Shown piece by piece: positions 10,711 to 15,483 of a DNA stretch of 64,000 bases (position 1 is its first letter; each line of letters begins with the position of its first letter). The notes beneath the pieces were generated by a model that saw nothing but the letters and a program-made list of their open reading frames with translations, was not told where the DNA came from and did not search any database. Position numbers and translations under genes: made by a program. This stretch comes from Deltaproteobacteria bacterium (lineage in GTDB: Bacteria > Myxococcota_A > UBA796 > UBA9615): positions 4,550 through 68,549 of the forward strand of contig JAGSHC010000005.1 of NCBI GenBank assembly GCA_023954745.1. Direction: 5' to 3'.

Positions 10711-10812
10711 CGGCCCGCTCGGCCGTCTTTTTCCTCCTTCTCTCGAATGCCCACGGGAGCCGCTCCGTCCTAGGGACAGATGCGGCGATGTGCCGCTGAT
10801 TGGAGAGAAGCA

Positions 10813-11976
10813 ATGCTAAACAACCGAGTCTTTGTACCCGTTGTCTTGATCTTGTCCCTCTTGATGCCGACGGCTGCGTTCGCTGGCAGGAAGGGGCACT
10901 CCCGAGACCGGGACTACGCCCACGGGCGGAACCACCGAGCCCCTGTCGAGCAGGGGTACATCACAGTCCGTAACGACAACGATGCCGCCCTCGAAGTCCT
11001 TGTTCGCGGCAAGGTGCAGGGCGAGGTCGACGCCATGAGCACCGCGCGCTTTGGACCATTCCCCGAGGGGAACCACAAGGTGCGAGTACGCTTCAACCGC
11101 CGAGGACTTCGGTTCCCGGTCACCGTGCAAAAGGTGTACGTCGGACACGGCCCCGCCCGCGTCTTTGCCGCCCAGGCAGACGTCGGCCTCCTCAAGGTAC
11201 GCAACGACTGGGTCGAGCCCATGACCGTGGTGCTCAACGGCCGCTCGGTCGGGACCATCGGTGCGAACCAGAAGCAGCTGTTCAAGCTCAGAGACGCCTA
11301 CGGGCGGGTGGAGCTCCGCACTCCGCGGGGCACGACGGCGCTGACCAAGCACGTGAGCCTCCAGGGGCTGCAGCGAGACAGGGTCGCCATCGTTCCTCCG
11401 CGGGAGGGCACGGTGACCATCACCAACCCCAGCCGCCAGCACGCACTGGACATCCTCTGCGCGCGGGGCAGCGTGGTGGCGACCCTGCCTCCGAGCGCTC
11501 GACGCACGGTGATCCAGCCGGCGGGTGATGTGACGCTGACCGCCGCCTACCGCGGCCAGGCCATCCAGCGGACGACCGTCTTGAGCTCGCCGTACGACCG
11601 GTCGGCCTGGACTGTGGCCCTGCCGACCCGTTCGACGCTGGGGGTGCGGAACCCGAACCGGTTCTCGGTGGACGTCTTCGTCGGGGGCCAGTTCTTCGCG
11701 ACGGTGGCTGGCAACGACAAGCTGATGCTGGACAACGTGCCGGTGGGCCACATTCAGGTGGAACTCGTCGGTCAAGGCCGCCGCGGTGGCATCTCGCAGG
11801 TGGTCAGCACTCGGGTGGACGCCCTCAGTGGCGGCTTCCTCCCCATCCCGCAGGTGCGGGTGGCGGACGGGCGCGGCGGGTCGTCGAGCAGCTGCGACAG
11901 TGGATACGCCGAGGTCCCGCCCCGGGACACGAGCCGTCGAGGTCGGGGGCGGAGCCGGAGCTACGCCCGGAACTAG
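10813..11976 (+). CDS. Secreted hypothetical protein built from four ~75-aa internal repeats
   Basis: Signal peptide MLNNRVFVPVVLILSLLMPTAAFA with a GGAGAG RBS 6 nt upstream. Repeated modules begin ITVRNDN, LKVRNDW, VTITNPS and LGVRNPN. Confidence 0.55.
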   Translation: MLNNRVFVPVVLILSLLMPTAAFAGRKGHSRDRDYAHGRNHRAPVEQGYITVRNDNDAALEVLVRGKVQGEVDAMSTARFGPFPEGNHKVRVRFNRRGLRFPVTVQKVYVGHGPARVFAAQADVGLLKVRNDWVEPMTVVLNGRSVGTIGANQKQLFKLRDAYGRVELRTPRGTTALTKHVSLQGLQRDRVAIVPPREGTVTITNPSRQHALDILCARGSVVATLPPSARRTVIQPAGDVTLTAAYRGQAIQRTTVLSSPYDRSAWTVALPTRSTLGVRNPNRFSVDVFVGGQFFATVAGNDKLMLDNVPVGHIQVELVGQGRRGGISQVVSTRVDALSGGFLPIPQVRVADGRGGSSSSCDSGYAEVPPRDTSRRGRGRSRSYARN

Positions 11977-12000
11977 CTCTCCAGAGCAGCGCTGAGCAGG

Positions 12001-12032
12001 CGAGCCCGCTCCGATTCGTCGGGGCGGGCTCG
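12001..12032. terminator. GC-rich hairpin (9-bp perfect stem CGAGCCCGC/GCGGGCTCG, 14-nt loop) between convergent genes
   Basis: The inverted repeat is read directly from the sequence. It lies 25 nt after the plus-strand stop and 5 nt after the minus-strand stop. There is no T-tract, which is common in high-GC genomes. Confidence 0.35.
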
Positions 12033-12037
12033 TCGCT

Positions 12038-12538
12038 TCATGGGTCCGAGCGCCGCCAGGCCCACCACGCAAGGGGGACCAGGATCGGCCACGCGAAGAA
12101 GCCCACGTCGGAGTCGAACCAGCCGAGCTCGAGGGGCCGCATCGAGAAAGGGAACAGGTACCGGTAGGAGGGCCGGACATGCCACTGCATCACGTCGAGG
12201 AGGAGATGCGCTACGCCTCCCCCGAGCAGGAGGGCCGCGAGCCGTCGCCTGGGAACTCCATCGAGGAGGAACCTGGGGAGGCCGGCCGCGAGGGCGGTCA
12301 CCACGAACAGTAAACCCAGGGGCAGGTGCAACGCTCCAAACCCGGTCACGACCCAGTCCAGATCGACGCCTTGGGACACGGCGATGGGCTGGATGGTGCG
12401 GGAAATCGAGATGGCCGGGACCCGACTGACGATGTCGGGGAGCACTCCTCCGAAGACGAAGACCAGGAGTTCACGGCGTCGGAGACGGCCGGCCGGCAGC
12501 GCGACGTTGAGCAGCGTGTGGGTGAGCAGGTCAGGCAT
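12038..12538 (-). CDS. Membrane-bound metal-dependent hydrolase, YdjM/DUF457-like
   Basis: Starts MPDLLTHTLLNVAL, matching the MDxLTHxLLG signature of YdjM-like proteins. It has several TM helices. The start overlaps the upstream stop (ATGCCTGA). Confidence 0.5.
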   Translation of the reverse strand: MPDLLTHTLLNVALPAGRLRRRELLVFVFGGVLPDIVSRVPAISISRTIQPIAVSQGVDLDWVVTGFGALHLPLGLLFVVTALAAGLPRFLLDGVPRRRLAALLLGGGVAHLLLDVMQWHVRPSYRYLFPFSMRPLELGWFDSDVGFFAWPILVPLAWWAWRRSDP

Positions 12539-12971
12539 GGGAGGGCCGATGGCGCCACCGGCGCAGAACCCAGAACCCCAGAGCCAGGAGCCATGCCCCG
12601 AGCATCGCGATTCCCGTGACCTCCTTGAACCGGCGGTAGGGGTGTTCCTTGACCAGCTCTGGCACGACGACGAGGCCGCCGCCGTGGTAGCCGACAACCG
12701 AGATGATCGTGCCAGGGGAGGGGAGTGGCTCGTCGGGGAGCCAGGGGGTGACCTGCACGGGCCCCATCCAGCTTCGAAGGGACACGGTGTCGCCCTCTGC
12801 GGCGACGACCCTGGTGAACCCGAGATAGAGCTCGCGACCCTCGCAGGAGGCCGGGCGCGCCGCGCACTCGGCCAGGGACACCGATCGCGCGTCGATGGCC
12901 CGACCAAACAGACCGACGAACAGGAGGGCGCAAAGGACCGAGACGAGGGCGAGTCCGTGGCGCGGGGTCAT
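12531..12971 (-). CDS. Two-TM membrane protein, DUF3592-like
   Basis: An N-terminal TM (LALVSVLCALLFVGLF), a ~90-aa middle domain and a C-terminal TM (GIAMLGAWLLALGFWVL). It sits 2 nt downstream of the rhomboid gene. Confidence 0.4.
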   Translation of the reverse strand: MTPRHGLALVSVLCALLFVGLFGRAIDARSVSLAECAARPASCEGRELYLGFTRVVAAEGDTVSLRSWMGPVQVTPWLPDEPLPSPGTIISVVGYHGGGLVVVPELVKEHPYRRFKEVTGIAMLGAWLLALGFWVLRRWRHRPSHA

Positions 12972-12972
12972 G

Positions 12973-13716
12973 TCAGTGGTAGATCGGCCCGTCGTCGCCG
13001 ACGACCCGAAGGTGCGACGGCCGCTTCGGTTTCGGGTCCCGCCGCACGAGCGGCCGGCTCCCGTCGTCTCCGAACAACCTCAAGATCACCCACCCGAGCA
13101 GCAGCCCGATGAGGTGCGCCTCGTGGCTGACTCCGGGGCTCGGGAACCCAAGCTCCAGTCCCACTGCCATCGGGATCAGCCAGATGGCGTCGAACTCAAA
13201 GGGGATGAAGAGCAGGTTGATCGGCCGCTTGGGAAAGGTCAGCGCGAACACCGCCATGACGGTGTAGACCGCGCCCGATGCACCAAGGGACCGGGACCCC
13301 CAGACGAGAAAGGGAAGGTCCCAGCCGGTCAGGTGGAGGATGCCCTCGAGCGCTACTTGAACCAAGCCGCCGGCCACGCCAGAGCCCATATACAGCCAGA
13401 GGAAACGCTTGTACCCCCAGCGCTGCGCGATGGTCGACCCAAACATCCAGAGGATGAAGAGGTTCCCAGCCAGATGCCCAAACTCCGAGTGGAGGAACAG
13501 GCGCGTCAGAGGTTGCCAGAGCATTCCTCGGAAGAACTGCGTGCTCTGAAGCGCCCCGTACTCCTCGATGAAGGTCGTCCCGCCTCCGATGCCGATCACT
13601 CGCTGGAGCACAAAGACGGCAGCAGTGGCGATGAGCAGATGCTTGATCACCTGGGGGGTGGCGGTGGGCCCAAACCGGAATTGGGCACCGCCTTGCTGGC
13701 CACCGGAGCGACTCAT
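12973..13716 (-). CDS. Rhomboid family intramembrane serine protease (active)
   Basis: TM2 WQPLTRLFLHSEFGHLAGNLF, catalytic GASGAVY (GxSG) and HEAHLIGLLLG (catalytic His). The C-terminal tail is ...DDGPIYH. Confidence 0.8.
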   Translation of the reverse strand: MSRSGGQQGGAQFRFGPTATPQVIKHLLIATAAVFVLQRVIGIGGGTTFIEEYGALQSTQFFRGMLWQPLTRLFLHSEFGHLAGNLFILWMFGSTIAQRWGYKRFLWLYMGSGVAGGLVQVALEGILHLTGWDLPFLVWGSRSLGASGAVYTVMAVFALTFPKRPINLLFIPFEFDAIWLIPMAVGLELGFPSPGVSHEAHLIGLLLGWVILRLFGDDGSRPLVRRDPKPKRPSHLRVVGDDGPIYH

Positions 13717-13743
13717 GAACCACCTCCAGTGAGTGGCGCCAAC

Positions 13744-14580
13744 TCAGTGATAGATCGGGCCATCTGACCCTCCCTTCACGGTGTCCTCGACGGCGCGAAG
13801 AAGGCGGTCACCCTTCGCTCGGCGGGCGCGCCTCCGGGGGTCGAGTCGGTCGCGATAGCGCCAGAAGAGCCAGCCGCCAGCCATGCCTCCCAGCTCGTAG
13901 CCGCCGACTCCCGGTGCTGCTCCGAAGGGGACGAACATGCCCAGCGTGCGGCCGACGACGAGGAACGCCACTCCCACGGCGATCCACTTGAGCTTGACGG
14001 GCAAGACCATGAAGAAGCTCACGAATGCATCGGGCGTAAGCGAGCAATTCACAACAATGATCGCGAGCACGACTGCGCCGAAGCCGTAGTGGTATCCGGG
14101 GGGCTGCTGGATGAAGCCAAAGAGGGCCGCGCCCACGAGGGAGCCCACCGTCGCGGCCACCCACAGCTCCAGGAACCGCCTTCGCCCCAGGAACCGTTCG
14201 ACGGTGTGGCCGAAGAAGCCGAGCCCAAAGAACCCCAGGACGTACCCCCCGAGCCCCCAGGGGGGGTAGAGCAGCGGCCCCGTGACGAGCTGCCACCAGC
14301 GGAAGCCGACGCCCATGGGGGGGCCGCCTCCCCCAGGCGCGCTCAGGGCGAGCAGGTTGGCCAGCGGGACCCGGGTGCCGGCGATGCTGGGAGCGAACAG
14401 CGGTGCGGCGTCCGTGGGAATCAGCGAGATCACCCAGCCGATGGCCCAGAGCGCGCCATAGAACAACAGGATGCTCCGCCCCAGATCCGTGAACTGGAGT
14501 CGAAAGCTGCCACTACGGGGAAGCGCTGCGGGGGTTGCCGCCATCGTCTTGACCATGACCTCGAAGACTCCCCTTGACAA
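13744..14580 (-). CDS. Rhomboid-like membrane protein, probably a catalytically inactive pseudo-rhomboid paralog
   Basis: A polytopic membrane protein related to the adjacent rhomboid. The GxSG serine is replaced (GFGAVVL) and no TM6 His is recognisable. It has the same C-terminal ...SDGPIYH tail. Confidence 0.55.
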   Translation of the reverse strand: MSRGVFEVMVKTMAATPAALPRSGSFRLQFTDLGRSILLFYGALWAIGWVISLIPTDAAPLFAPSIAGTRVPLANLLALSAPGGGGPPMGVGFRWWQLVTGPLLYPPWGLGGYVLGFFGLGFFGHTVERFLGRRRFLELWVAATVGSLVGAALFGFIQQPPGYHYGFGAVVLAIIVVNCSLTPDAFVSFFMVLPVKLKWIAVGVAFLVVGRTLGMFVPFGAAPGVGGYELGGMAGGWLFWRYRDRLDPRRRARRAKGDRLLRAVEDTVKGGSDGPIYH

Positions 14581-14583
14581 TAC

Positions 14584-14607
14584 CTGTACATCCGTTCATT
14601 ACTGAAC
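14584..14607. promoter_or_regulatory. Putative LexA operator (SOS box) in the divergent lexA / rhomboid-operon promoter region
   Basis: CTGTACATCCGTTCATT matches the Myxococcus-type LexA box CTRHAMRYBYGTTCAGS (recalled from memory) at 15 of 17 positions. It overlaps a perfect inverted repeat GTTCA-N4-TGAAC (14594-14607). It lies ~55 nt upstream of the lexA start. Confidence 0.5.
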
Positions 14608-14656
14608 AAACGTGTAGACCCAGCGACGCCCGCTGGGATCGCGGAAGGAGCACCCC

Positions 14657-15334
14657 ATGAAGGGCTTGTCGTCGAGGCAGAGAGAGATCCTGGAGTACAT
14701 GCACGAGCGGCTGGTCGAGGATCAGGTGCTCCCGTCGTACCGCGAGATTGGTGACGCCATGGGCATCAAGTCCACAAATGGTGTGTCCGACCACGTCAAG
14801 GCCCTGGAACGAAAGGGGTATGTCTCGCGCCGTGGAGGCGGGGGCAGGGGAGCGCTTGCTCGGGCGCTGACCCTGACGGAGCAGGCACTCCTCGAACTCG
14901 GCATCACGGCAAACGAGCCCGACCCGATCCTCACGGGGGACGTGGTCCAGATCGGGGTGTACGGCCAGGTGGCGGCTGGGCAGCCCGTCCTCGCGGTGGA
15001 GAACCGTGAAGAGACTCTGTTCGTCGACTCGTGCATGGTGCCCGGCGGTGGTCAGGTCTTCGCGCTCCGCGTCTCCGGAGAGTCGATGATCAACGCGGGC
15101 ATCCTCCCGGGCGACTATCTCTTCATCCGCAAGCAGCGCACAGTCCGCAACGGGGAGATCGCGGTGGTCGTGATCGACGGGGACGCCACCGTGAAGACCT
15201 TCTTCCGAGAGGGAGACCGGATCCGCCTGCAGCCCGAGAACGACACGATGGAGCCGATCTACGTGGCGGCGTCCGAGTTCCGGGATGTGCAGGTCATGGG
15301 GGTTGTGTGCGGCGTCTATCGGAAGATGCACTGA
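14657..15334 (+). CDS. lexA: LexA repressor
   Basis: An N-terminal winged HTH, the AG cleavage site (VAAGQP), and an S24 peptidase domain with GESM (Ser) and VVVIDGDATVKTF (Lys). Confidence 0.9.
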   Translation: MKGLSSRQREILEYMHERLVEDQVLPSYREIGDAMGIKSTNGVSDHVKALERKGYVSRRGGGGRGALARALTLTEQALLELGITANEPDPILTGDVVQIGVYGQVAAGQPVLAVENREETLFVDSCMVPGGGQVFALRVSGESMINAGILPGDYLFIRKQRTVRNGEIAVVVIDGDATVKTFFREGDRIRLQPENDTMEPIYVAASEFRDVQVMGVVCGVYRKMH

Positions 15335-15407: not shown

Positions 15408-15483
15408 GGGGGATTAGCTCAGCTGGGAGAGCGCAGCGTTCGCAACGCTGAGGTCAGGGGTTCGATCCCCCTATCCTCCACCA
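15408..15483 (+). tRNA. tRNA-Ala (anticodon CGC)
   Basis: I folded the cloverleaf by hand. The acceptor stem GGGGGAT/ATCCTCC has a G3:U70 pair, which is the alanine identity element. The D-arm is GCTC/GAGC, the anticodon loop is TTCGCAA, the T-loop is TTCGATC, and the 3' CCA is encoded. Confidence 0.9.

Follow-up and report, generated by a model that had tools for sequence, protein, structure and literature searches.

The window analysed here is a 64-kb stretch (64,000 nucleotides, G+C content 68%) of contig JAGSHC010000005.1. It carries two rhomboid genes in tandem on the minus strand, back to back with lexA. The upstream gene encodes a rhomboid-fold protein that has lost its catalytic residues (the dead copy), and the downstream gene a rhomboid predicted to be active (the live copy). 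Both proteins end with the same short peptide, DGPIYH. Apparently new is that bacteria have a conserved family of dead rhomboids whose cytosolic C-terminal tail is specific to the clade, and that in this lineage the dead copy is co-encoded with a live paralogue in an operon that seems to be linked to the SOS response. The features of the pair are:

13744..14556, minus strand: coding sequence of the dead rhomboid (pseudoprotease), NCBI MCO4768746.1, labelled 'hypothetical protein'; the longest open reading frame extends to a TTG at 14580 (13744-14580, 278 amino acids)
14077..14079, minus strand: catalytic-serine position in the dead copy, codon GGC, Gly168 (GFGAVV; G166-F-G168-A), equivalent to S201 of GlpG and S147 of the live copy
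13894..13896, minus strand: catalytic-histidine position in the dead copy, codon GAG, Glu229 (GGYELGG), equivalent to H254 of GlpG and H201 of the live copy
13744..13764, minus strand: DGPIYH tail and TGA stop of the dead rhomboid, full tail GSDGPIYH
13717..13743, minus strand: spacer of 27 nucleotides between the dead and the live gene, with GGAGGTG 5 nucleotides ahead of the live-copy ATG
12973..13716, minus strand: coding sequence of the live (predicted active) rhomboid protease, 247 amino acids, MCO4768745.1
13000..13026, minus strand: segment KRPSHLRVV of the live copy, residues 231-239, just ahead of the tail
12973..12993, minus strand: DGPIYH tail and TGA stop of the live rhomboid, full tail GDDGPIYH

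The live copy matches the Pfam family Rhomboid (PF01694) with an E-value of 1.2e-25. Its motifs are WQPLT (residues 67-71), H76/H81/N85, G145-A-S147-G and A200-H201-LIG. Together with its 25-member family profile (A2), the protein aligns to GlpG of Haemophilus influenzae and Escherichia coli over all catalytic motifs (profile E-value 1e-9). WQPLT corresponds to the WR motif of loop L1, H81/N85 to H150/N154, GAS147G to GLS201G and AH201LIG to AH254IAG. The features of active rhomboids of MEROPS family S54 are present: the GxSG serine in transmembrane helix 4 (TM4; S147), the TM6 histidine (H201) and the HxxxN of TM2 (H81, N85). The full catalytic apparatus that the original prediction, made from the DNA letters, had assigned to the downstream gene was thus borne out by Pfam and by the GlpG alignment. 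The live copy is predicted to be an active rhomboid protease. YdcA of Bacillus subtilis has all rhomboid hallmarks, yet is without detectable activity (PMC7231995). AlphaFold2 modelled the live copy as a confident six-helix bundle (predicted local distance difference test, pLDDT, 83.7) with a disordered cytosolic C-terminus at residues 216-247. The cut-offs of the NCBIfam equivalogs were not reached (rhombosortase TIGR03902, 23 vs 84 bits; GlpG TIGR04239, 31 vs 250 bits).

The dead copy scored just under the Pfam Rhomboid cut-off (21.2 vs 22.6 bits, E-value 3.6e-4). A direct BLASTP comparison of the dead and live proteins gave an E-value of 0.061 only, and PDB sequences searched with the dead family, by single sequence or by profile, gave no match. 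Because these direct searches are too weak, homology of the dead copy to rhomboids rests on profile-profile comparison and structure prediction. The dead-family profile (A1, 15 orthologues) aligned to the live-family profile with an hhalign probability of 98.9% (E-value 1.1e-17). In the AlphaFold2 model of the dead copy (pLDDT 79.7, predicted template modelling score 0.74), six TM helices are followed by a cytosolic helix (residues 248-270) and by a tail that is disordered. GlpG structures were the top matches of this model in Foldseek (probability 1.0, TM-score 0.59-0.66), followed by Derlin-1 and iRhom2. Profile comparison and modelling confirmed the prediction that the upstream gene product is a true pseudoprotease with a rhomboid fold.

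The original prediction had described this protein as a rhomboid scaffold with a glycine for the catalytic serine and without the TM6 histidine. Both losses were recovered, as G168 and E229, and the profile alignment with the live family located the Ser/His dyad as lost, not shifted. The same alignment places G112/G116 at the His/Asn positions of TM2, which belong to the oxyanion site. TM4 Ser, TM6 His and TM2 His/Asn of the S54 family are all absent from the dead copy, and it has no match to the rhombosortase and GlpG equivalogs of NCBIfam. Retained are the W-Q motif of loop L1, the 'VERxLGRRRF' scaffold of TM2-TM3, the GxxxG of TM6 and the cytosolic tail. The cytosolic helix at residues 248-270 (278-amino-acid numbering) is rich in arginine. 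Judged by these comparisons, both proteins belong to the rhomboid fold superfamily, and only the downstream one passes the sequence tests for an active S54 peptidase. The dead copy might still be an enzyme with another catalytic set, for example Cys179 or Thr182 with Glu229. The 15 close orthologues all have C179, T182 and P183, and 14 of them have E229 (His in protein P0010). This proposal is very improbable: the wider dead family has Gly or Ala at position 179 and any of E, Q, V, S, L, H, Y and W at the TM6 position, both TM2 oxyanion residues are Gly, and no known rhomboid uses such a set.

The dead copy is not an isolated remnant. Word-indexed and exhaustive searches yielded 15 close orthologues with 40-80% identity. 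In a library of representative sequences, the dead family comprised 16 clusters below 1e-30 and 128 below 1e-10. A serine in the nucleophile column was found in no member of the family. The identities of dead and live orthologues run in parallel (73/74, 59/65, 48/56 and 43/45%). The ratio of nonsynonymous to synonymous substitution rates (dN/dS) in genome pairs was 0.16-0.28 for both genes alike, and the two were indistinguishable. This codon comparison shows purifying selection on the dead copy that equals the selection on its live neighbour. A decaying pseudogene would agree with the Pfam score just below threshold and with the NCBI label 'hypothetical protein', and the shared tail could come from a mis-called stop or a frame error, an artefact that the original prediction had itself considered. 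Intact frames in every locus, the dN/dS range, at least 16 clusters below 1e-30, the confident fold of the model and the same stop after the same motif in every orthologue of both genes rule out such explanations almost completely.

Some dead members (the orthologue P0010; the distant relatives P0089/P0224, P0090 and P0229) still have a histidine at the TM6 site, without the serine and the TM2 His/Asn. The survival of this residue suggests a stepwise loss of the active site. Annotations do not reflect the loss: neither NCBI nor JGI flags the missing catalytic residues, and some relatives are wrongly named 'rhomboid family serine protease'. The JGI label of the sequence-dead P0004, P0014 and the P0224 cluster is 'membrane associated rhomboid family serine protease'.

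The tail is the second shared property of the pair. It had been given as D(D/G)GPIYH; the DGPIYH on both proteins stands, and the full pattern is slightly off, as the upstream tail reads SDGPIYH. In the six frames of the window, only these two open frames end with GP[IV]YH and a stop. The codons differ (live GAC GAC GGG CCG ATC TAC CAC; dead TCA GAT GGC CCG ATC TAT CAC), which indicates conservation at the protein level. Recent gene conversion as the source of the identity is excluded by the same differences. Both tails are predicted to be cytosolic and disordered (AlphaFold2 pLDDT below 50). All homologues of the live neighbour share '[HK]L[RK]VV...DDGP[IV][YF]H', grading to 'KLRAV...NDRTYH' and then to 'NRRTFY' in remoter relatives. 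Remote dead relatives end with 'F.VI[DE]GG...(D/E)xP[TV][YF]H'. Of 238 retrieved proteins that were compared with the live profile by alignment, 33 live and 40 dead ones had the motif (an aromatic/aliphatic-His C-terminus) at their end. Tail-less live proteins mostly have a DUF6576-type C-terminus instead, and [HK]L[RK]VV stands ahead of DUF6576 as well where the tail is absent, for example in P0073.

Outside the rhomboids, the tail was not encountered. A scan of metagenome DNA for DGPIYH followed by TGA had 31 matches. Two of them lie in long open reading frames, and these encode rhomboids of this family; the remaining 29 fall in open frames of no more than 78 amino acids, as chance predicts. 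About 396 kb of fetched DNA contained 1,495 open frames with 100 amino acids or more; a relaxed motif ended 31 of them, and all 31 were rhomboid-like. A search for further proteins ending with GPIYH had been proposed earlier; in the scans made here, long frames with such an end were rhomboid-like throughout. The tail appears to be an inherited, clade-specific peptide that is restricted to rhomboids. Several functions had been suggested for it in the original prediction. A general sorting signal was rejected, as the DNA scans found the tail on no protein other than rhomboids. Heterodimerisation is unlikely to be the primary role: solitary live and dead genes carry the tail too, so it is not specific to the pair. 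A shared interaction with one cytosolic partner would be the best reading of the tail.

The XB peptide of SspB tethers SspB to the N-domain of ClpX. The segment KRPSHLRVV of the live copy, with [HK]L[RK]VV conserved in the close live family, resembles this peptide (RGGRPALRVVK in PMC3983244) over five to seven residues and may be taken as a lead only.

The two rhomboid genes are the first of four genes on the minus strand. The remaining features of the locus are:

12531..12971, minus strand: third operon gene, 146 amino acids, starting 1 nucleotide past the stop of the live rhomboid
12038..12538, minus strand: fourth operon gene, YdjM-like, 166 amino acids, with an 8-nucleotide overlap with the end of the third gene
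14657..15334, plus strand: lexA (LexA_DNA_bind and Peptidase_S24), divergent from the rhomboid operon
14584..14617, no strand assigned: composite operator of two abutting inverted Myxococcus-type SOS boxes, CTGTACATCCGTTCATT on the plus strand and CTACACGTTTGTTCAGT on the minus strand
14574-14579: TTGACA (-35-like), pointing towards lexA

The operon starts with the dead rhomboid, followed by the live rhomboid, the 146-amino-acid membrane protein and the YdjM-like protein. This order, with lexA divergent, recurs in the related loci L001/2, L004/5, L007, L009, L010 and L042, down to ~43% identity. lexA lies divergent upstream in every related locus whose DNA extends there. The four-gene order was also found in L006, where the contig covers lexA only in part, and the contig of L008 holds lexA and the dead copy and ends right after the latter. 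Across the loci, the dead and live genes are adjacent in constant order, with intergenic gaps of 9-39 nucleotides. In the window, the spacer 13717-13743 has no terminator-like site. With the GGAGGTG in this spacer, a strong Shine-Dalgarno sequence, the arrangement is consistent with co-transcription of the dead and the live gene, and the layout argues for a single transcript of all four genes. The dead gene probably starts at ATG 14556 or at ATG 14544 (the NCBI call, 266 amino acids) rather than at TTG 14580. This TTG is doubtful as a start because it overlaps the TTGACA element beside the lexA operator. Promoter positions at the locus come from reading by eye only. A metagenome contig (OWNT01003711; locus L012), retrieved by the DNA pattern of the tail alone, holds the dead and live tandem at about 7.3-8.9 kb and independently confirmed the architecture. 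A profile scan of genome contigs with alignment A1 gave two loci only, and the taxonomic breadth is thinly sampled.

The spacer between lexA and the operon was scanned with the SOS box consensus of Myxococcus xanthus (CTRHAMRYBYGTTCAGS, at most two mismatches; PMC9705874). The two boxes of the composite operator match with one and two mismatches and are the sole such matches in the window. As a 34-bp composite 'CT-N8-GTTCAGTA-N-TGAAC-N8-CAG', the site is conserved in eight diverged loci within a variable flanking spacer. It is kept in every related locus that includes the ~100-bp spacer between lexA and the operon. The boxes lie 28-61 nucleotides upstream of the likely operon ATG, so bound LexA would overlap any promoter of the operon or lie downstream of it. 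The perfect TTGACA towards lexA makes the site fit lexA autoregulation as well. The operon is probably under SOS control.

Other membrane proteins are known from this genomic position. The Gram-positive division inhibitors yneA, sosA, chiZ and divS are SOS genes divergent from lexA. In E. coli, ydjM belongs to the SOS genes and has tandem LexA sites (PMC4951493). The window resembles these systems in an operon of membrane proteins back to back with lexA, in the shared operator, in a ydjM-family gene and in a small, single-pass-like membrane protein. It differs by the rhomboids: the searched literature, which covers little of the subscription journals, holds no report that ties a rhomboid to LexA or places one in an SOS regulon. 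Regulation of the window operon by LexA is predicted from the sequence.

The N-terminus of the 146-amino-acid protein resembles a signal peptide. It is followed by a domain of ~95 amino acids in which C36/C43 are invariant, by a single C-terminal TM helix and by a basic tail. Searches of Pfam, NCBIfam and PDB gave no match. Its type-I-like topology is that of classical rhomboid substrates, a lead that makes it a candidate substrate or SOS effector. This open reading frame is overlain in L042 by a gene that the gene caller put on the wrong strand. The 166-amino-acid protein is an inner-membrane protein with a sub-threshold match to YdjM (PF04307, E-value 7.5e-6, 26 bits vs a cut-off of 29). None of the four operon proteins matched the defence models of PADLOC.

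Rhomboid pseudoproteases, the iRhoms and Derlins, are central to eukaryotic signalling and quality control in the endoplasmic reticulum. How dead rhomboids arise from live ones and what rhomboids do in bacteria are open questions, and YqgP of B. subtilis has been cited as no more than a hint of the origin of pseudoproteases (PMC7231995). The view that dead rhomboids are rarely documented in bacteria agrees with the searched literature, which treats rhomboid pseudoproteases as eukaryotic. No description of a sequence-dead bacterial rhomboid was found there, and an earlier bioinformatic mention is possible. Measured against this literature, the locus provides a natural bacterial counterpart to dead rhomboids so far studied in eukaryotes only.

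Four known systems are close enough for comparison. Derlin-1/Dfm1 of the endoplasmic reticulum, with the live yeast Rbd2 and RHBDL4, share with the window pair a rhomboid fold without the Ser/His dyad, the Trp motif of L1 and the GxxxG of TM6. They also have a short cytosolic C-terminal motif common to dead and live members. This SHP box or VCP-binding motif (VBM), found on the dead Derlin-1/Dfm1 and the live Rbd2, recruits the AAA+ ATPase Cdc48/p97 (PMC12615303). In contrast, the window pair is bacterial, encoded in one operon and without SHP box, VBM or ubiquitin machinery, and DDGPxYH-COOH is unrelated to these motifs in sequence. The dead copy has no match to Pfam DER1 (PF04511). The original prediction had called the situation iRhom-like. 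Like iRhom1/2, the dead copy is a dead paralogue beside a predicted active rhomboid, here in tandem, with a role thought to be regulatory, and iRhom2 is a weak structural match. The comparison ends there: loop L1 has ~55 residues without a Cys-rich module, and the iRhom homology domain that would separate TM1 from TM2 is missing, as are a seventh helix and a client of the ADAM17 type. The cytosolic N-terminus has ~30 residues (278-amino-acid numbering), unlike the long one of iRhoms. The dead copy would act like a rhomboid pseudoprotease, yet belongs to neither iRhoms nor Derlins.

The bacterial systems are also distinct. YqgP (GluP) of B. subtilis has a demonstrated protease-independent ('pseudoprotease') role as an adaptor for the AAA+ protease FtsH in membrane-protein turnover (PMC7231995). 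It resembles the pair as a bacterial rhomboid system with a protease and an adaptor role, the latter being proposed for the pair. YqgP unites both roles in one polypeptide with an N-terminal metal-sensing domain, whereas here they are apparently divided between two genes and a C-terminal peptide is what is conserved. GlpG of E. coli and H. influenzae aligns with the live copy over the catalytic motifs, and both window proteins model as six-helix bundles. The pair lacks the N-terminal cytoplasmic domain of GlpG and has WQ instead of WR in L1, and the tail motif is absent from GlpG.

The preferred reading, with a rough probability of 0.45, is an SOS-linked membrane-proteolysis module. LexA would repress a single transcript of the four genes, and DNA damage would induce it. 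The dead rhomboid would be a non-catalytic, client-binding or regulatory partner that holds, presents or shields membrane-protein clients for the live one. The clients may include the small membrane protein of the operon itself, to be cleaved in turn by the live copy. The tail peptide '...hL(R/K)(V/A)V...DDGPxYH-COOH', which is disordered, would be a clade-specific short linear motif by which live and dead members dock one common cytosolic factor; an AAA+ unfoldase or protease is the most plausible candidate by analogy. The docking proposal draws on the SHP box of Derlin-1/Dfm1 and Rbd2 and on YqgP-FtsH of B. subtilis.

Several observations speak against this module. The operator could serve lexA autoregulation alone, and a consensus sigma-70 scan of 11900-14800 detected no operon promoter. 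The resemblance of KRPSHLRVV to the SspB peptide is a short match. The source organisms of all loci are uncultured, represented by metagenome-assembled genomes. The tail-bearing live relative P0043 is solitary and not near lexA. The distant dead relatives P0224, which stands for a cluster of 132 sequences, and P0229 are likewise solitary and away from lexA, so the dead form does not universally require an adjacent live partner. Active rhomboids show no significant dimerisation in membranes according to a review (PMC12615303).

The last two points fit a dead copy that works alone as a Derlin-like chaperone or dislocation factor, with an adjacency that merely records a duplication. P0224 and P0229 bear the tail without an adjacent rhomboid or lexA, and membrane dimerisation is not known for active rhomboids. 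P0229 has a weak, sub-threshold match to Pfam DER1 (E-value 1.2e-4, 22.6 vs 26.6 bits), and Derlin-1 and iRhom2 follow GlpG in Foldseek. An independent dead copy is nevertheless somewhat unlikely. The pair stays adjacent in the same order with gaps of 9-39 nucleotides down to ~43% identity and with matched divergence, which exceeds the inertia of a duplication.

The shared tail and the presumed common transcript would also suit an inhibitor or decoy that, until conditions change, limits proteolysis by competing with the live rhomboid for substrates or the tail-binding factor. Negative regulation of this kind is what was originally ascribed to iRhoms, whose first description was as inhibitors of rhomboid signalling (PMC3149277). 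The former active-site cavity, with small residues and the conserved Glu229, is compatible with binding without cleavage. Such an inhibitor is clearly less probable than a dead copy working alone. An enzyme and its inhibitor produced at a fixed ratio from one operon offer little regulatory leverage, and nothing separates the inhibitor from the adaptor.

The module of dead and live rhomboids can be extended to a self-contained, damage-induced machine for intramembrane proteolysis, a bacterial analogue of endoplasmic-reticulum-associated degradation with tails that tether ClpX or FtsH. After LexA de-repression, the dead copy would capture clients, the live copy would clip them and YdjM would be made too. 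The type-I protein would be a dedicated substrate or effector, for instance a division or envelope checkpoint factor of the SOS response like yneA/sosA. The SspB-XB-like 'RPxHLRVV' in the tails would tether ClpX (or FtsH) for extraction and destruction of the fragments. This extended version is doubtful and has a lower chance than the inhibitor.

The locus represents a naturally split bacterial system: live and dead paralogues under equal selection, with a common tail peptide and a candidate substrate alongside. In such a four-gene cassette, it can be tested directly how protease and pseudoprotease share the work.

At 10780-11976 on the plus strand, convergent with the operon, a gene encodes a secreted protein of repeated, beta-like 'V(R/T)NxxxxxxxV' units with faint BiPBP_C matches. 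Equivalents of this repeat protein (385-430 amino acids) are present in L001, L004, L007, L009 and L010. A tRNA-Ala(CGC) gene lies directly downstream of lexA (15408-15483, plus strand). The wider neighbourhood is devoted to envelope biogenesis, with a heptosyltransferase, LpxK, an MsbA-like protein, LpxB, a BamB-like protein and the era/der GTPases.

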